Part shown: in pieces, positions 7,293 to 38,180 of the stretch | Position numbering within the stretch: position 1 is the first letter of the stretch | Layout: the number at the start of each line of letters is the position of its first letter | Assembly (NCBI RefSeq): GCF_003334335.1 | Contig: NZ_QOWQ01000002.1 | Reading direction: 5' to 3' (one strand) | Source of the DNA: Escherichia coli | GTDB lineage: Bacteria > Pseudomonadota > Gammaproteobacteria > Enterobacterales > Enterobacteriaceae | DNA: 64,000 bases | The notes under the pieces: model-generated | Told to the model about the DNA's origin: nothing | What the model saw: the letters and a program-made list of their open reading frames with translations, nothing else | The model's database searches: none | Translations under genes and position numbers: made by a program

Positions 7293-8561
7293 ATGATTAT
7301 CAAACGCACTCCTCAAGCCGCGTCGCCTCTGGCTTCGTGGCTTTCTTATCTGGAAAACCTGCACAGTAAAACTATCGATCTCGGCCTTGAGCGCGTGAGC
7401 CTGGTCGCGGCGCGTCTTGGCGTCCTGAAACCAGCGCCATTTGTGTTTACCGTTGCGGGTACGAATGGCAAAGGCACCACCTGCCGTACGCTGGAGTCGA
7501 TTCTGATGGCGGCAGGGTACAAAGTGGGCGTCTACAGTTCGCCTCATCTGGTGCGTTATACCGAGCGCGTACGTGTGCAGGGCCAGGAATTGCCGGAATC
7601 GGCCCACACCGCCTCTTTTGCGGAGATTGAATCGGCACGCGGTGATATTTCCCTGACCTATTTCGAGTACGGTACGCTGTCGGCGTTGTGGCTGTTCAAG
7701 CAGGCACAACTTGACGTGGTGATTCTGGAAGTAGGGCTGGGCGGTCGTCTGGACGCAACCAATATTGTCGACGCCGATGTCGCGGTAGTAACCAGTATTG
7801 CGCTGGATCATACCGACTGGCTGGGTCCAGATCGCGAAAGTATTGGTCGCGAGAAAGCAGGCATCTTCCGCAGCGAAAAACCGGCAATTGTCGGTGAGCC
7901 GGAAATGCCTTCTACCATTGCTGATGTGGCGCAGGAAAAAGGTGCACTGTTACAACGTCGGGGCGTTGAGTGGAACTATTCCGTCACCGATCATGACTGG
8001 GCGTTTAGCGATGCTCACGGCACGCTGGAAAATCTGCCGTTGCCGCTTGTCCCGCAACCGAATGCCGCAACAGCGCTGGCGGCACTGCGTGCCAGCGGGC
8101 TGGAAGTCAGTGAAAATGCCATTCGCGACGGGATTGCCAGCGCAATTTTGCCGGGACGTTTCCAGATTGTGAGCGAGTCGCCACGCGTTATTTTTGATGT
8201 CGCGCATAATCCACATGCGGCGGAATATCTCACCGGGCGTATGAAAGCGCTACCGAAAAACGGGCGCGTGCTGGCGGTTATCGGTATGCTACATGATAAA
8301 GATATTGCCGGAACTCTGGCCTGGTTGAAAAGCGTGGTTGATGACTGGTATTGTGCGCCACTGGAAGGGCCGCGCGGTGCCACGGCAGAACAACTGCTTG
8401 AGCATTTGGGTAACGGCAAATCATTTGATAGCGTTGCGCAGGCATGGGATGCCGCAATGGCGGACGCTAAAGCGGAAGACACCGTGCTGGTGTGTGGTTC
8501 TTTCCACACGGTCGCACATGTCATGGAAGTGATTGACGCGAGGAGAAGCGGTGGCAAGTAA
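7293..8561 (+). CDS. folC: Dihydrofolate synthase / folylpolyglutamate synthase
   Basis: 422-aa ORF with P-loop GTNGKGT (Mur-ligase family); lies between accD and dedD. Confidence 0.95.
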   Translation: MIIKRTPQAASPLASWLSYLENLHSKTIDLGLERVSLVAARLGVLKPAPFVFTVAGTNGKGTTCRTLESILMAAGYKVGVYSSPHLVRYTERVRVQGQELPESAHTASFAEIESARGDISLTYFEYGTLSALWLFKQAQLDVVILEVGLGGRLDATNIVDADVAVVTSIALDHTDWLGPDRESIGREKAGIFRSEKPAIVGEPEMPSTIADVAQEKGALLQRRGVEWNYSVTDHDWAFSDAHGTLENLPLPLVPQPNAATALAALRASGLEVSENAIRDGIASAILPGRFQIVSESPRVIFDVAHNPHAAEYLTGRMKALPKNGRVLAVIGMLHDKDIAGTLAWLKSVVDDWYCAPLEGPRGATAEQLLEHLGNGKSFDSVAQAWDAAMADAKAEDTVLVCGSFHTVAHVMEVIDARRSGGK

Positions 8562-9213
8562 GTTTCAGAATCGGTTAGTGGGCACGATCGTGCTGGTGGC
8601 GCTGGGGGTGATTGTACTTCCAGGGCTGCTGGACGGGCAGAAAAAACATTATCAGGATGAGTTCGCGGCTATCCCGCTGGTGCCGAAAGCGGGCGATCGT
8701 GATGAGCCTGATATGATGCCAGCCGCCACCCAGGCGTTACCGACGCAGCCGCCGGAAGGCGCAGCGGAAGAGGTGCGGGCAGGTGATGCCGCAGCACCGT
8801 CGCTCGATCCGGCCACTATTGCAGCCAATAACACCGAGTTTGAACCGGAACCTGCACCGGTCGCCCCACCGAAGCCGAAACCGGTGGAGCCGCCTAAACC
8901 AAAGGTTGAAGCACCACCTGCGCCGAAGCCAGAACCGAAGCCGGTCGTGGAAGAAAAAGCTGCACCGACGGGTAAAGCCTATGTTGTGCAACTGGGTGCG
9001 CTGAAAAATGCCGATAAAGTGAATGAGATTGTCGGTAAGCTGCGCGGTGCCGGTTATCGGGTTTATACGTCGCCATCCACGCCAGTGCAGGGTAAAATTA
9101 CCCGTATTCTGGTTGGGCCGGATGCCTCGAAAGATAAGCTGAAAGGTTCGCTGGGTGAGTTGAAGCAACTTTCTGGCTTAAGTGGCGTGGTAATGGGCTA
9201 TACGCCGAATTAA
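8551..9213 (+). CDS. dedD: Cell-division protein DedD (SPOR domain)
   Basis: 220 aa from the GTG at 8551 (AGGAG Shine-Dalgarno at 8541-8545); N-terminal TM segment, Pro/Lys-rich linker and C-terminal SPOR-like domain; overlaps the folC 3' end by 11 nt. Confidence 0.85.
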   Translation: MASKFQNRLVGTIVLVALGVIVLPGLLDGQKKHYQDEFAAIPLVPKAGDRDEPDMMPAATQALPTQPPEGAAEEVRAGDAAAPSLDPATIAANNTEFEPEPAPVAPPKPKPVEPPKPKVEAPPAPKPEPKPVVEEKAAPTGKAYVVQLGALKNADKVNEIVGKLRGAGYRVYTSPSTPVQGKITRILVGPDASKDKLKGSLGELKQLSGLSGVVMGYTPN

Positions 9214-9222
9214 TACGGTCTT

Positions 9223-9308
9223 GCCTGATGCGACGCTGGCGCGTCTTATCAGGCCTACGCAGGGGTAGAACCGTAGGTCGGATAAGGCGTTTACGCCGCA
9301 TCCGACAC
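9223..9308. repeat. BIME: two inverted REP palindromic units
   Basis: gcctgatgcgacgctggcgcgtcttatcaggcctac (9223-9258) and gtaggtcggataaggcgtttacgccgcatccgacac (9273-9308) match the enterobacterial REP pattern. Confidence 0.75.
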
Positions 9309-9341
9309 GCATTGCCCGATGCCGCAAAGGCATAAAAAGTC

Positions 9342-9376
9342 GATGGCGTTGAATATTTTTTCAGCGCCATTTTTAT
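9342..9376 (+). terminator. Possible intrinsic terminator ending the accD-folC-dedD transcript
   Basis: atggcg...cgccat stem with a 15-nt loop, followed by TTTTTATT. Confidence 0.4.
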
Positions 9377-9399
9377 TGATGCGCGGGAAGGAAATCCCT

Positions 9400-9415
9400 A
9401 CGCAAACGTTTTCTT
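9400..9415 (+). promoter_or_regulatory. PurR operator (PUR box) at the cvpA-purF-ubiX promoter
   Basis: ACGCAAACGTTTTCTT matches the 16-bp PurR box consensus; a TAGAAT -10-like hexamer lies at 9423-9428. Confidence 0.7.
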
Positions 9416-9471
9416 TTTCTGTTAGAATGCGCCCCGAACAGGATGACAGGGCGTAAAATCGTGGGACACAT

Positions 9472-9960
9472 ATGGTCTGGATTGATTACGCCATAATCGC
9501 GGTGATTGCTTTTTCCTCTCTGGTTAGCCTGATCCGCGGCTTTGTTCGTGAAGCGTTATCGCTGGTGACATGGGGTTGTGCTTTCTTTGTTGCCAGTCAT
9601 TACTACACTTACCTGTCAGTCTGGTTTACGGGCTTTGAAGACGAACTGGTTCGAAATGGGATTGCCATCGCGGTACTGTTTATCGCTACCCTGATCGTTG
9701 GTGCTATCGTGAACTTCGTGATAGGCCAGTTGGTGGAGAAAACGGGGTTGTCAGGCACCGATCGGGTGCTGGGCGTCTGTTTCGGTGCGTTGCGCGGTGT
9801 GTTGATTGTTGCTGCCATTCTCTTCTTTCTCGACTCCTTTACCGGGGTGTCGAAAAGCGAAGACTGGAGCAAATCACAGCTGATCCCGCAATTCAGTTTT
9901 ATCATCAGATGGTTTTTTGATTATCTGCAAAGCTCGTCAAGTTTCTTGCCCAGAGCGTAA
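9472..9960 (+). CDS. cvpA: Colicin V production membrane protein CvpA
   Basis: 162-aa hydrophobic ORF immediately upstream of purF. Confidence 0.9.
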   Translation: MVWIDYAIIAVIAFSSLVSLIRGFVREALSLVTWGCAFFVASHYYTYLSVWFTGFEDELVRNGIAIAVLFIATLIVGAIVNFVIGQLVEKTGLSGTDRVLGVCFGALRGVLIVAAILFFLDSFTGVSKSEDWSKSQLIPQFSFIIRWFFDYLQSSSSFLPRA

Positions 9961-9996
9961 GTGCTCTGAGATGTGGCTTAACGAGGAAAAAGACGT

Positions 9997-11514
9997 ATGT
10001 GCGGTATTGTCGGTATCGCCGGTGTTATGCCGGTTAACCAGTCGATTTATGATGCCTTAACGGTGCTTCAGCATCGCGGTCAGGATGCCGCCGGCATCAT
10101 CACCATAGATGCCAATAACTGCTTCCGTTTGCGTAAAGCGAACGGGCTGGTGAGCGATGTATTTGAAGCTCGCCATATGCAGCGTTTGCAGGGCAATATG
10201 GGCATTGGTCATGTGCGTTACCCCACGGCTGGCAGCTCCAGCGCCTCTGAAGCGCAGCCGTTTTACGTTAACTCCCCGTATGGCATTACGCTTGCCCACA
10301 ACGGCAATCTGACCAACGCTCACGAGTTGCGTAAAAAACTGTTTGAAGAAAAACGCCGCCACATCAACACCACTTCCGACTCGGAAATTCTGCTTAATAT
10401 CTTCGCCAGCGAGCTGGACAACTTCCGCCACTACCCGCTGGAAGCCGACAATATTTTCGCTGCCATTGCTGCCACAAACCGCTTAATCCGCGGCGCGTAT
10501 GCCTGTGTGGCGATGATTATCGGCCACGGTATGGTTGCTTTCCGCGATCCAAACGGGATTCGTCCGCTGGTACTGGGAAAACGTGATATTGACGAGAACC
10601 GTACAGAATATATGGTCGCTTCCGAAAGCGTAGCGCTCGATACGCTGGGCTTTGATTTCCTGCGTGACGTCGCGCCGGGCGAAGCGATTTACATCACTGA
10701 AGAAGGGCAGTTGTTTACCCGTCAATGTGCTGACAATCCGGTCAGCAATCCGTGCCTGTTTGAGTATGTATACTTTGCCCGCCCGGACTCGTTTATCGAC
10801 AAAATTTCCGTTTACAGCGCGCGTGTGAATATGGGCACGAAACTGGGCGAGAAAATTGCCCGCGAATGGGAAGATCTGGATATCGACGTGGTGATCCCGA
10901 TCCCAGAAACCTCGTGTGATATCGCGCTGGAAATTGCTCGTATTCTGGGCAAACCGTACCGCCAGGGCTTCGTTAAAAACCGCTATGTTGGCCGCACCTT
11001 TATCATGCCGGGCCAGCAGCTGCGTCGTAAGTCCGTGCGCCGTAAACTGAATGCCAACCGCGCCGAGTTCCGCGATAAAAACGTCCTGCTGGTCGACGAC
11101 TCCATCGTCCGTGGCACCACTTCTGAGCAGATTATCGAGATGGCACGCGAAGCCGGAGCGAAGAAAGTGTACCTCGCTTCTGCGGCACCGGAAATTCGCT
11201 TCCCGAACGTTTATGGTATTGATATGCCGAGCGCCACGGAACTGATCGCTCACGGTCGCGAAGTTGATGAAATTCGCCAGATCATCGGTGCTGACGGGTT
11301 GATTTTCCAGGATCTGAACGATCTGATCGACGCCGTTCGCGCTGAAAATCCGGATATCCAGCAGTTTGAATGCTCGGTGTTCAACGGCGTCTACGTCACC
11401 AAAGATGTTGATCAGGGCTACCTCGATTTCCTCGATACGTTACGTAATGATGACGCCAAAGCAGTGCAACGTCAGAACGAAGTGGAAAATCTCGAAATGC
11501 ATAACGAAGGATGA
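9997..11514 (+). CDS. purF: Amidophosphoribosyltransferase
   Basis: 505-aa ORF; MCGIVGI N-terminus (Ntn glutaminase catalytic Cys) and a PRPP-binding motif ([13 protein letters not shown]). Confidence 0.95.
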
Positions 11515-11608: not shown

Positions 11609-12178
11609 ATGAAACGACTCATTGTAGGCATCAGCGGTGCCAGCGGCGCGATTTATGGCGTGCGCTTATTACAGGTTCTGCGCGATGTCACAGATATCGA
11701 AACGCATCTGGTGATGAGCCAGGCAGCGCGCCAGACCTTATCCCTCGAAACGGATTTTTCTCTGCGCGAAGTGCAGGCATTAGCCGATGTCACGCACGAT
11801 GCGCGCGATATTGCCGCCAGCATCTCTTCCGGTTCTTTCCAGACGCTGGGGATGGTGATTTTACCCTGTTCAATCAAAACCCTTTCCGGCATTGTCCATA
11901 GCTATACTGATGGCTTACTGACCCGTGCGGCAGATGTGGTGCTGAAAGAGCGTCGCCCGTTGGTGCTCTGCGTGCGTGAAACACCATTGCACTTAGGCCA
12001 TCTGCGTTTAATGACTCAGGCGGCAGAAATCGGTGCGGTGATTATGCCTCCCGTTCCGGCGTTTTATCATCGCCCGCAATCCCTTGATGATGTGATAAAT
12101 CAGACGGTTAATCGTGTTCTTGACCAGTTTGCGATAACCCTTCCTGAAGATCTCTTTGCCCGCTGGCAGGGCGCATAA
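11609..12178 (+). CDS. ubiX: Flavin prenyltransferase UbiX
   Basis: 189-aa ORF with flavoprotein N-terminus MKRLIVGISGASGAIYG. Confidence 0.93.
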   Translation: MKRLIVGISGASGAIYGVRLLQVLRDVTDIETHLVMSQAARQTLSLETDFSLREVQALADVTHDARDIAASISSGSFQTLGMVILPCSIKTLSGIVHSYTDGLLTRAADVVLKERRPLVLCVRETPLHLGHLRLMTQAAEIGAVIMPPVPAFYHRPQSLDDVINQTVNRVLDQFAITLPEDLFARWQGA

Positions 12179-23343: not shown

Positions 23344-25488
23344 TTACTGCTGCTGTGCAGACTGAATCGCAGTCAGCGCGATGGTGTAGACGATATCGTC
23401 AACCAGTGCGCCACGGGACAGGTCGTTAACCGGCTTGCGCATACCCTGCAGCATCGGCCCGATGGAGATCAGGTCGGCAGAACGCTGTACCGCTTTGTAG
23501 GTGGTGTTACCGGTGTTCAGATCCGGGAAGATGAACACGGTAGCGCGACCTGCAACCGGAGAGTTCGGCGCTTTGGATTTCGCAACGTCAGCCATTACCG
23601 CAGCGTCGTACTGCAGCGGACCGTCGATCATCAGGTCAGGACGTTTTTCCTGCGCCAGACGAGTTGCTTCGCGAACTTTTTCTACGTCGCTACCTGCACC
23701 AGAAGTACCGGTGGAGTAGGAGAGCATAGCAACGCGCGGTTCGATACCGAAGGCCGCAGCGGAATCAGCGGACTGAATCGCGATTTCTGCCAGCTGTTCA
23801 GCGGTCGGATCCGGGTTGATCGCACAGTCACCGTAAACGTAAACCTGTTCCGGCAGCAGCATGAAGAACACGGAAGATACCAGGGAGCTGCCCGGTGCAG
23901 TTTTGATCAGCTGCAGCGGCGGACGGATGGTGTTTGCGGTAGTGTGAACAGCACCGGAAACCAGACCATCAACTTCATCCTGTTCCAGCATCAGCGTACC
24001 GAGCACCACGTTGTCTTCCAGCTGTTCGCGGGCAACGGTTTCGGTCATGCCTTTGTTCTTACGCAGTTCGACCAGACGACCAACATAGCTTTCGCGAACC
24101 ACTTCTGGATCAACGATTTCAATCCCTGCACCCAGTTCTACACCCTGAGACGCTGCAACACGGTTGATCTCTGCCGGATTACCCAGCAGTACGCAAGTTG
24201 CGATACCACGTTCAGCACAGATAGCGGCTGCTTTAACGGTACGCGGTTCGTCACCTTCCGGCAGTACGATACGTTTGCCCGCTTTGCGCGCAAGTTCAGT
24301 CAGCTGATAACGGAACGCAGGCGGAGACAGACGACGGCTGCGCTCAGAAGTGGCAGTCAGAGATTCGATCCAGTCAGCGTTGATGTAGTTAGCAACGTAT
24401 TCCTGAACTTTCTCGATACGTTCGTGATCGTCAACCGGAACTTCCAGGTTGAAGCTCTGCAGGCTCAGAGAGGTCTGCCAGGTGTTGGTGTTCACCATAA
24501 ATACCGGCAGGCCGGTAGCGAAAGCACGTTCGCACAGTTTAGAAATGCGCGCGTCCATTTCGTAACCGCCAGTCAGCAGCAGGGCACCGATTTCTACGCC
24601 GTTCATGGCTGCCAGGCAAGCGGCCACCAGCACGTCAGGACGGTCTGCGGAAGTCACCAGCAGAGAACCGGCACGGAAGTGCTCCAGCATGTGCGGAATG
24701 CTGCGTGCGCAGAAAGTGACGGATTTAACGCGGCGAGTATTGATGTCGCCTTCGTTGATGATGGTCGCATTCAGGTGGCGAGCCATATCGATCGCACGAG
24801 TCGCGATCAGGTCAAAGCTCCACGGCACAGCGCCGAGAACCGGCAGCGGGCTGGATTCTTGCAGCTTCGCCGGATCAACATTGTTTACTTTAGCTTTGGA
24901 AGAGTCGTCGAAAATCTCGGACAGATCCGGGCGAGTACGACCCTGTTCATCAACCGGTGCGTTCAGTTTGTTAACGATAACGCCGGTGATGTTGGTGTTT
25001 TTGGCACCGCCGAAGCTGTTGCGGGTCAGTTCGATACGCTCTTTCAGCTGTTCCGGGGTGTCAGTGCCCTGAGACATAACGAAGACGATTTCCGCATTCA
25101 GCGTTTTAGCGATTTCGTAGTTCAGAGACTGGGCAAACTGGTGCTTACGTGTCGGGACCAGACCTTCAACCAGAACGACTTCAGCGTCTTTGGTGTTAGC
25201 GTGGTAGTTTGCGACGATCTCTTCCATCAGCACATCTTTCTGATTGCTGGAAAGCAGACCTTCAACGTAGCTCATTTTCAGCGGTTCAGCGGCCGTCGTG
25301 GTGGAAGAGTTCGCACGCACGATAGTCGTAGTCTGATCGGGCGCATCGCCACCGGTACGCGGCTGAGCGATAGGTTTGAAAACGCTCAGACGAACGCCTT
25401 TGCGTTCCATTGCACGGATCACGCCAAGGCTGACGCTGGTCAGACCGACGCTGGTTCCGGTAGGGATCAGCATAATAATACGGGACAC
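23344..25488 (-). CDS. pta: Phosphate acetyltransferase
   Basis: 714-aa ORF; N-terminus [22 protein letters not shown]; lies downstream of ackA. Confidence 0.97.
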
Positions 25489-28882: not shown

Positions 28883-30715
28883 GTGAACGGTGAATTGATT
28901 TGGGTTCTTTCATTACTGGCCGTTGCCATCGTCTTGTTTGCGACGGGCAGAGTGCGTATGGATGCGGTCGCTTTGTTTGTTATTGTCGCGTTTGCATTAA
29001 GCGGAACGCTGACAGTCCCAGAAGTATTTTCCGGCTTTTCTGATCCTAACGTTGTCCTGATTGCCGCCTTGTTTATTATTGGCGATGGTTTGGTCCGTAC
29101 CGGTGTTGCCACCGTAATGGGAACATGGCTGGTCAAAGTTGCGGGCAATAGTGAAATCAAAATGTTGGTTTTGTTGATGCTGACCGTCGCGGGGCTTGGC
29201 GCGTTTATGAGTTCAACCGGCGTTGTCGCTATCTTTATTCCCGTGGTGTTAAGCGTTGCCATGCGTATGCAAACGTCGCCGTCACGTCTGATGATGCCGT
29301 TAAGTTTTGCCGGGCTGATTAGCGGCATGATGACGCTGGTGGCGACGCCGCCGAACCTGGTAGTCAACAGTGAATTGCTGCGTGAAGGCTATCACGGCTT
29401 CAGTTTCTTTAGCGTAACACCTATTGGCCTGGTCGTGCTGGTGCTGGGTATTTTGTATATGTTAGTGATGCGTTTCATGCTGAAAGGGGATACCCAGACC
29501 CCGCAGCGCGAAGGCTGGACGCGTCGAACCTTTCGCGATCTTATCCGTGAATATCGACTGACCGGGCGTGCGCGACGTCTGGCTATTCGCCCCGGATCGC
29601 CAATGATTGGTCAACGGCTGGATGATCTCAAATTACGTGAGCGTTATGGCGCTAACGTCATCGGTGTTGAACGCTGGCGGCGTTTTCGTCGCGTTATCGT
29701 GAACGTTAATGGGGTTTCTGAATTTCGCGCGCGTGACGTTTTGCTTATTGATATGTCTGCGGCTGATGTCGATCTCCGGCAATTTTGTAGTGAGCAATTG
29801 CTGGAGCCGATGGTACTGCGCGGCGAGTATTTTTCTGACCAGGCCCTTGATGTGGGCATGGCAGAGATTTCATTAATTCCTGAGTCAGAACTGATTGGTA
29901 AATCGGTGCGCGAAATTGGTTTTCGTACCCGCTACGGACTGAATGTGGTGGGGCTAAAGCGCAATGGCGTGGCGCTGGAAGGTTCGCTGGCGGATGAGCC
30001 TCTGCTGCTGGGCGATATCATCCTGGTTGTGGGTAACTGGAAACTGATCGGTATGCTGGCCAAACAGGGCCGCGACTTCGTAGCGCTGAACTTACCGGAA
30101 GAGGTGAGTGAAGCATCACCCGCGCACAGCCAGGCACCCCATGCCATTTTCTGTCTGGTGCTAATGGTGGCGTTAATGCTGACAGATGAAATTCCTAATC
30201 CTGTTGCCGCTATCATCGCCTGCCTGCTGATGGGGAAATTCCGCTGTATAGATGCTGAAAGCGCCTATAAATCCATTCACTGGCCGAGCATTATTTTGAT
30301 CGTTGGGATGATGCCGTTTGCTGTGGCATTACAGAAAACGGGAGGTGTCGCGCTGGCGGTGAAAGGGCTGATGGACATTGGCGGTGGTTACGGGCCACAT
30401 ATGATGCTGGGGTGTTTGTTTGTCTTGTCGGCGGTTATTGGGCTATTTATCTCTAATACCGCGACGGCGGTGTTGATGGCTCCGATTGCGCTGGCTGCTG
30501 CCAAAACGATGGGGGTGTCGCCTTATCCATTCGCGATGGTCGTGGCGATGGCAGCATCCGCCGCCTTTATGACACCGGTTTCTTCACCTGTTAACACACT
30601 GGTTTTAGGTCCGGGAAATTACAGCTTCAGTGACTTTGTGAAGTTGGGGGTACCGTTCACCATTATCGTGATGGCGGTTTGTGTGGTGATGATCCCGATG
30701 CTGTTTCCGTTTTGA
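28883..30715 (+). CDS. yfbS: Putative anion transporter YfbS with two internal TrkA-C (RCK_C) domains
   Basis: 610-aa ORF: hydrophobic N- and C-terminal halves flank two soluble repeats (...[23 protein letters not shown]... and ...[23 protein letters not shown]...). Confidence 0.85.
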
Positions 30716-36389: not shown

Positions 36390-38180
36390 ATGACCGACTT
36401 AACCGCGCAAGAACCCGCCTGGCAGACCCGCGATCATCTTGATGATCCGGTGATTGGCGAACTGCGCAACCGTTTTGGGCCGGATGCCTTTACTGTTCAG
36501 GCGACTCGCACCGGGGTTCCCGTTGTGTGGATCAAGCGTGAACAATTACTGGAAGTTGGCGATTTCTTAAAGAAACTGCCGAAACCTTACGTCATGCTGT
36601 TTGACTTACACGGCATGGACGAACGTCTGCGCACACACCGCGAAGGGTTACCTGCCGCGGATTTTTCCGTTTTCTACCATCTGATTTCTATCGATCGTAA
36701 CCGCGACATCATGCTGAAGGTGGCGCTGGCAGAAAACGACCTGCACGTACCGACCTTCACCAAACTGTTCCCGAACGCTAACTGGTATGAGCGTGAAACC
36801 TGGGATCTGTTTGGCATTACTTTCGACGGTCACCCGAACCTGCGACGCATCATGATGCCGCAAACCTGGAAAGGTCACCCGCTGCGTAAAGATTATCCGG
36901 CGCGCGCTACCGAATTCTCGCCGTTTGAGCTGACCAAAGCCAAACAGGATCTGGAGATGGAAGCCCTGACCTTCAAACCGGAAGAGTGGGGGATGAAGCG
37001 CGGCACCGAAAACGAGGACTTCATGTTCCTCAACCTCGGTCCGAACCACCCGTCGGCGCACGGGGCTTTCCGTATCGTTTTGCAACTCGATGGCGAAGAG
37101 ATTGTCGACTGCGTACCAGACATCGGTTACCACCACCGTGGTGCGGAGAAAATGGGCGAACGCCAGTCCTGGCACAGCTACATTCCGTATACTGACCGTA
37201 TCGAATACCTCGGCGGCTGCGTTAACGAAATGCCTTACGTGCTGGCGGTAGAGAAACTGGCCGGGATCACCGTGCCGGATCGCGTTAACGTCATTCGCGT
37301 TATGCTCTCCGAACTGTTCCGCATCAACAGTCACCTGCTGTATATCTCGACCTTTATTCAGGACGTCGGCGCAATGACGCCAGTGTTCTTCGCCTTTACC
37401 GATCGTCAGAAAATTTACGATCTGGTGGAAGCAATCACTGGTTTCCGTATGCACCCGGCGTGGTTCCGTATTGGCGGCGTAGCGCACGACCTGCCGCGCG
37501 GCTGGGATCGCCTGCTGCGTGAGTTCCTCGACTGGATGCCGAAACGTCTGGCGTCTTACGAGAAAGCGGCGCTGCAAAACACCATTCTGAAAGGTCGTTC
37601 CCAGGGCGTTGCCGCCTATGGCGCGAAAGAGGCGCTGGAGTGGGGCACCACTGGCGCGGGCCTGCGTGCTACCGGGATCGACTTCGACGTGCGTAAGGCG
37701 CGTCCTTATTCTGGCTATGAAAACTTCGACTTTGAAATCCCGGTGGGTGGTGGCGTTTCTGACTGCTACACCCGCGTAATGCTTAAAGTGGAAGAGCTGC
37801 GCCAGAGTCTGCGCATTCTTGAGCAGTGCCTCAACAACATGCCGGAAGGCCCGTTCAAAGCGGATCACCCGCTGACCACGCCGCCGCCGAAAGAGCGCAC
37901 GCTGCAACATATCGAAACCCTGATCACCCACTTCCTGCAAGTGTCGTGGGGTCCGGTGATGCCTGCCAATGAATCTTTCCAGATGATTGAGGCGACCAAA
38001 GGGATCAACAGTTACTACCTGACCAGCGACGGCAGCACCATGAGTTACCGCACCCGTGTTCGTACCCCGAGCTTTGCGCATTTGCAGCAAATTCCGGCGG
38101 CGATCCGCGGCAGCCTGGTGTCTGACCTGATTGTTTATCTGGGCAGTATCGATTTTGTTATGTCAGATGTGGACCGCTAA
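36390..38180 (+). CDS. nuoC: NADH:quinone oxidoreductase fused subunit C/D
   Basis: Fused 30-kDa/49-kDa-type subunit; 596 aa from the ATG at 36390. An in-frame ATG at 36378 would give 600 aa and the true start is not resolved. Confidence 0.93.

Follow-up and report, generated by a model that had tools for sequence, protein, structure and literature searches.

What is the 16-bp imperfect palindrome that lies between dedD and cvpA in this Escherichia coli chromosome, and what does it do for the purine genes that follow it? PurR, the E. coli purine repressor, is a LacI-family dimer whose corepressor is hypoxanthine or guanine. A PurR-binding purF operator of E. coli K-12 was reportedly described by Rolfes and Zalkin in 1988; the original footprinting and operator-mutation papers are said to be those of Makaroff and Zalkin (1985), Rolfes and Zalkin (1988) and He et al. 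(1990), and it is this purF operator that the crystal structure papers on the PurR-corepressor-DNA complex carry in their titles. The palindrome at 9400-9415 is almost certainly the purF (cvpA-purF-ubiX) operator of PurR, and nothing that we found argues against that identity. The operator is already known, and there is no novelty in the site itself. Its coordinates and those of the surrounding features are collected in Table 1.

Table 1. Features of the dedD-cvpA-purF-ubiX region, numbered along the window, which is the whole 64-kb stretch of E. coli DNA that was analysed
Feature	Position	Strand	Source
dedD	8551-9213		annotation of identical DNA
Terminator-like hairpin	9342-9371	+	terminator scan: 12-pair stem, 6-nt loop, then TTTATT
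PurR operator (PUR box) ACGCAAACGTTTTCTT	9400-9415	read on +	sequence; dedD-cvpA intergenic region
Extended -10, TGt + TAGAAT, of the sigma-70 promoter cvpAp1	9420-9428	+	sequence; PMC2760140 supplement
GC-rich discriminator GCGCCCC	9429-9435	+	sequence; between -10 and start
Transcription start of cvpA-purF-ubiX (G)	9436	+	5'-RACE; computed from ATG 9472
cvpA, 162 aa, first operon gene	9472-9960	+	ORF list; RefSeq annotation of identical DNA
purF, amidophosphoribosyltransferase, 505 codons	9997-11514	+	ORF list; annotation
ubiX, 189 codons, third gene of the unit	11609-12178	+	ORF list; annotation; PMC3159470

The operator and the promoter it overlaps

The palindrome is built around a central CpG at 9407-9408 and agrees with the palindromic PUR consensus ACGCAAACGTTTGCGT at 14 of 16 positions. 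Its left half is perfect, and both mismatches fall in the right half, where T replaces G at positions 13 and 15. The earlier note on this DNA had called it a near-perfect 16-bp PUR box, which is fair at 14 of 16, but the word consensus in its heading slightly overstated the match. The note had also put the box about 8 nt upstream of a TAGAAT hexamer; the spacer between them, TTTCTGT, is in fact 7 nt long (9416-9422), and TAGAAT occupies 9423-9428. In form (a 16-bp imperfect palindrome with a central CpG) and in location (upstream of cvpA-purF, overlapping the core promoter), the site has the attributes by which a PUR box is recognised.

The start of transcription is known from directed 5'-RACE, which placed it at -36 from the cvpA ATG, a start listed as "Known" and assigned to cvpAp1 (PMC2760140, supplement file 3). 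The same supplement gives the sigma-70 -10 element as GTTAGAAT / ttctGTTAGAATgcgc and assigns no -35, so that the hexamer first read simply as -10-like is the 5'-RACE-supported -10 of cvpAp1. Counted from the mapped start, TAGAAT occupies -13 to -8, with the start 7 nt past the hexamer, and the TG of the extension lies at -16/-15. The operator spans -36 to -21, with its centre at -28.5, and so stands where the -35 element and the first two-thirds of the spacer would be. The candidate -35 hexamers there (ACGCAA and TACGCA) share two to three of six bases with TTGACA. A consensus promoter scanner found no -35/-10 pair at 9150-9550; since this scanner requires a -35 match, its null result is not evidence against cvpAp1, which has a 5'-RACE start and an extended -10. 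The sequence and the mapped start have the hallmarks of extended -10 sigma-70 promoters, namely a TGn motif, a -35 that is weak or missing, and transcription beginning 6-8 nt past the hexamer. Given TGt joined to TAGAAT, a start at 9436 and no -35, cvpAp1 would be best described as an extended -10 promoter without a usable -35.

Downstream of the -10 element, the discriminator and the start G together (9429-9436) give CCCG at -3/+1, and this is conserved across 92 species among the matches listed. A CCCG bias at -3/+1 has been described for E-sigma70-preferred promoters, a set that includes cvpA, purF and ubiX with in vitro ratios of 1.85-2.12, and GC-rich discriminators are typical of ppGpp-inhibited promoters (PMC3141248). 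Stringent control of cvpAp1 through its GC-rich discriminator may be inferred from this. A candidate RNA hairpin pairing GCGCCC (9429-9434) with GGGCGT (9448-9453) was rejected because its 5' arm precedes the mapped start.

The DNA around the operator is that of E. coli at large. Many E. coli chromosomes match bases 9000-10200 at 100% identity, and the region is present in 5426 of 5426 complete genomes; the 56-nt core at 9390-9445 is single-copy in all 5426, identical in 5383 of them and different at one or two bases in the other 43. According to the annotation, argT and hisJ come next after ubiX. The dedD-cvpA intergenic region contains two REP-type hairpins, GCCTGATGCGACGC/GCGTCTTATCAGGC at 9223-9254 and GTCGGATAAGGCGT/ACGCCGCATCCGAC at 9277-9306 (9187-9332 if taken more widely), and it is because of these hairpins that the 1.2-kb query matched each E. 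coli genome at a median of 15 places. An Rfam scan of 9150-9600 returned only three sub-threshold naRNA4 matches on the REP hairpins, with scores of 35-38 bits where the gathering score is 59.5; the operator, the promoter and the 5' UTR gave no match. The terminator-like hairpin, about 130 nt beyond the stop codon of dedD and 29 nt short of the PUR box, presumably insulates cvpAp1 from upstream read-through, to judge by its sequence and position. A published in vitro run-off table lists a probe upstream of cvpA, IG2428784_2429041-f, as "transcribed in opposite direction" with a ratio of 1.71 (PMC3141248). This probe corresponds to about 9216-9473 of the window on the minus strand, a hint that the REP/terminator region gives rise to a divergent or antisense transcript. 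A LexA site has also been predicted for cvpA, AAGACTGGAGCAAATCACAGCT, with a score of 9.8 (PMC2760140 supplement). This site falls at 9860-9881, within the coding part of cvpA and not upstream of the gene, and was set aside as a weak computational prediction unrelated to the operator.

Motif strength and PurR occupancy

How far does the palindrome stand out from the rest of the window? A weight matrix was made from the PurR motifs that the ChIP-chip study PMC3159470 tabulates (its Table 1), 27 in number once the cvpA site had been left out, and was run over both strands of all 64 kb; 100 Markov-1 simulated sequences of 64 kb served as the null. Read in its two orientations, the PUR box scored 21.65 and 17.06 bits, and nothing else in the window scored as high. 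The training sites scored 12.05-24.76 bits with a median of 19.96, so the box lies above the median of the sites from which the matrix was made. Maxima of the 100 simulated windows averaged 15.56 bits (sd 1.82), the largest was 20.58, and none reached 21.65. This was the scan that the earlier note had proposed as a check, and it shows the box to be more than a chance match. The next-best locus reached 13.54 bits, about 8 bits below the box. The runner-up matches are at 25390-25405 (+), 36464-36479 (-) and 29267-29282 (-), at 13.5, 13.4 and 12.3 bits, respectively. Such scores are no lower than those of the weakest ChIP sites, yet they do not reach the mean maximum expected by chance in a window of this size (15.6 bits), and PMC3159470 reports no ChIP region at any of the three positions; they are probably chance matches.

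The published binding data refer to exactly this site. Cho et al. (2011, PMC3159470), who mapped PurR by ChIP-chip, give the bound region of cvpA-purF-ubiX as 2,428,603-2,428,965, and the motif they list for it is AAGAAAACGTTTGCGT at MG1655 2,428,842-2,428,857. This motif is the reverse complement of ACGCAAACGTTTTCTT; the window lies around 2.43 Mb of the K-12 map and reads along the K-12 minus strand. When the ChIP-chip coordinates are mapped onto the window, the motif falls exactly at 9400-9415 and the cvpA ATG at 9472. PurR enrichment at cvpA-purF-ubiX was log2 = 1.77 with adenine, no peak was present without adenine, and the authors counted the site among those previously characterised (PMC3159470). 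Purified PurR shifts a cvpA-purF fragment extending from -171 to +56 in EMSA (PMC5829826), and cvpA-purF is a member of the PurR-controlled, adenine-responsive Pur-1 iModulon (PMC8376909). The literature therefore documents both PurR binding, by ChIP-chip and EMSA, and dependence on a purine corepressor, by adenine-only occupancy and Pur-1 membership. Together with the published motif, these data bear out the earlier suggestion that a PurR operator at the cvpA-purF-ubiX promoter explains purine repression of the operon.

Conservation of the block and competing readings

Conservation was assessed with a degenerate pattern for cvpA codons 23-32 (GFVREALSLV) in one genome per species, which gave at least 120 loci. 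A coding-region probe was chosen to avoid selecting on the operator; the cvpA start was then located and up to 300 nt upstream of it were scanned. Three Enterobacterales loci were left unscored, two of which begin inside cvpA (L025, L116), and one of which has only 36 nt of upstream DNA (L044). Among the matches listed, 107 of 118 related loci have purF downstream of cvpA in the same orientation. A PUR box is present in every one of the 92 Enterobacterales loci with upstream DNA among the matches listed, which comprise 89 distinct 160-mers, and conservation at orthologous promoters can thus be added to the attributes of the site. Among the genera represented are Escherichia, Citrobacter, Enterobacter, Kosakonia, Pantoea, Erwinia, Serratia, Yersinia, Rahnella, Hafnia, Edwardsiella, Dickeya, Pectobacterium, Brenneria, Providencia, Morganella, Budvicia, Pragia and Plesiomonas.

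The 16-mer is identical in 83 of the 92 species and is followed by TTTCTGTTAGAAT in 86, among the matches listed; GCGCCCC or a close variant is found in all 92 of these species among the matches listed. Over the same 92 listed loci, the majority-base fraction is 0.99 in the box, 1.00 in the seven-base spacer and 0.99 in the -10, and in the flanks it is 0.58 over the 50 upstream bases, 0.84 over the next 12 downstream bases and then 0.59 and 0.49. The profile was anchored on the first 11 box bases, so that conservation of the anchored columns is partly by construction, a bias that does not touch columns 11-15, the spacer, the -10 or the flanks; among the matches listed, the anchor was present in every Enterobacterales locus that has upstream DNA. 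Across the 92 loci among the matches listed, the box lies anywhere from 57 to 195 nt ahead of the ATG, and this variability indicates that the block is conserved as a unit and not through overall similarity.

Outside the Enterobacterales the picture changes. No site above 6.9 bits was found in the 23 non-Enterobacterales loci with upstream DNA among the matches listed; the outgroups scanned were Marinobacter, Cellvibrio, Catenovulum, Oceanobacter, Marinimicrobium and several MAGs. Twelve of 14 outgroup loci checked carry cTGnTAGAAT or cTGnTAAAAT followed by a GC-rich discriminator, with purF downstream. The -10 lies about 39-42 nt from the ATG in 11 of these loci and 76 nt from it in one. Loci with an extended -10 and no box include L012, L040, L091, L110 (Marinobacter), L038 (Catenovulum), L072 (Cellvibrio), L086 and L121. 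Since the outgroups keep the -10 without a PUR box, the extended -10 promoter looks older than the PurR operator, which would have been superimposed on the upstream half of that promoter in the PurR-using lineage.

Could the palindrome be a chance resemblance to a PUR box, with no regulatory role? A search of the 64-kb window for 16-mers with up to three mismatches found 9400-9415 as its sole match, but such a match is expected at random in a window of this size: the expectation is 0.77 per window and 59 of 100 shuffles also produced one, so the mismatch search is uninformative on significance. The chance reading is refuted on other grounds and has practically no probability left, given the exact identity to the published site, the matrix score above those of all 100 simulated windows, the binding shown by published ChIP and EMSA, and a box that is invariant in 83 of 92 species among the matches listed while its flanks diverge. 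Could the block instead be conserved mainly as core promoter, a -35 equivalent plus spacer, with PurR binding secondary or incidental? Conservation does run unbroken from about -38 to +4, well past the 16 bp of the box, and takes in both the T-rich spacer and the right half-site with its non-consensus bases, and the left arm of the box sits exactly at the position of a -35 hexamer. That arm is, however, a poor -35, and outgroup promoters with TGnTAGAAT and a GC-rich discriminator have unrelated sequence in the -35 and spacer region and no PUR box, which argues that the promoter does not need the PUR-box sequence. The box also outscores the median of bona fide PurR sites, and its occupancy by PurR in vivo is purine-dependent. 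A conserved core promoter with incidental PurR binding is accordingly very improbable, and the preferred reading stays that of a PurR operator set into an extended -10 promoter.

What remains to be weighed is why the right half-site holds to its non-consensus form. Among the matches listed, T is found at position 15 in 84 of 92 species and at position 13 in 91 of 92, and the consensus G at position 13 in none. Variant right half-sites (TTTTCGT, TTTACGT and TTTTCCT) occur in only seven species among the matches listed, and the PurR matrix gives every one of them a higher score (24.2-24.7 versus 21.5 bits), which makes the usual TTTTCTT a conserved sub-optimal half-site. The variant loci are L011, L054 (Providencia), L046, L109 (Morganella), L062, L059 (Serratia grimesii) and L098 (Erwinia piriflorinigrans). 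This fixity of positions 13 and 15, together with the higher scores of every variant, could be taken to mean that a second factor reads the operator too, or that the affinity of the operator for PurR is tuned to be sub-maximal. We consider that unlikely: no result here indicates a second factor, positions 13-16 are also promoter spacer, which is sufficient reason for constraint, and the variants themselves prove that the positions can change. Similarly doubtful, if slightly less so, is the broader idea that the fixed non-consensus positions, the T-rich spacer and the GC-rich discriminator form an extra control layer packed into 45 bp, acting through sub-maximal PurR affinity or through ppGpp/DksA-sensitive coupling to the open complex, with a cooperative two-operator version arising separately in the Budviciaceae.

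A second strong PUR box is indeed present in three members of that family, Pragia fontium (L096), Budvicia aquatica (L026) and Limnobaculum allomyrinae (L112). The second boxes are ACGATAACGTTTGCGT (21.5 bits), ACGGTAACGTTTGCTT (17.8 bits) and ACGATAACGTTTGCTT (19.2 bits). The boxes lie at -138/-145 and -107/-113 from the cvpA ATG, the second lying upstream of the conserved box at a distance of 31-32 bp, or about three helical turns. In the rest of the 115 loci among the matches listed, two sites of at least 12 bits do not occur together.

Repression by PurR and related operators

How would PurR act at this site? When purines are plentiful, hypoxanthine or guanine would load the repressor, and the PurR dimer would bind the 16-bp imperfect palindrome, place its hinge helices at the central CpG and bend the DNA. 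The operator stops five bases short of the TG motif in the extended -10; because it lies within -36 to -21 of such a promoter, bound PurR would be expected to exclude RNA polymerase, and transcription of cvpA, purF and ubiX would be turned off. Collision with RNA polymerase is the accepted mode of repression at pur promoters. Steric exclusion of polymerase and the details of hinge helix and kink would thus follow from established knowledge of PurR, of which crystal structures exist (including 1pnr, 1qpz and 1wet); the sequence, the matrix match, the position relative to the start, the purine-dependent occupancy, the in vitro binding and the conservation come from direct observation, here or in the cited experiments.

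Compared with the purF operator of E. coli K-12 at cvpAp1, nothing is different: the sequence, the locus, the downstream genes, the -10 and the start are the same, and the window is simply another E. coli strain with the K-12 operator. The other PUR boxes of E. coli (purT, purL, purHD, purMN, purC, purEK and others) share the 16-bp palindromic architecture with central CG. PurR sites generally lie between -35 and -10, which is where the motif is found in 14 of the 32 promoter regions under direct PurR control (PMC3159470). Unlike, for example, the purT box ACGAAAACGTTTGCGT, the cvpA-purF box combines one perfect with one weakened half-site. Its position also sets it apart from the purB and purR operators, which lie downstream of the start and act as roadblocks, and from the carAB box, which lies far upstream, at -128.5. 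More widely, the PurR site is reminiscent of other LacI/GalR-family operators, such as lacO, galO and the cytR and fruR sites, which have in common with it a dimeric helix-turn-helix repressor with a hinge helix, a pseudo-palindrome with central CG and overlap with the core promoter. In contrast to the family in general, PurR needs a corepressor (hypoxanthine or guanine) in order to bind, rather than being released by an inducer, as established knowledge and the adenine-dependent ChIP signal (PMC3159470) both indicate.

The value of the site is that of a control. It is a textbook transcription-factor site that can be recognised from raw sequence, and it is usable, as the earlier note had suggested, as an internal positive control for motif reading in the window. 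It also anchors the window's identity and orientation, as E. coli DNA read along the K-12 minus strand. The PurF reaction is the first committed step of purine synthesis, and the operator is the switch that turns this step off when purines are available, a switch that has been established since the 1980s.
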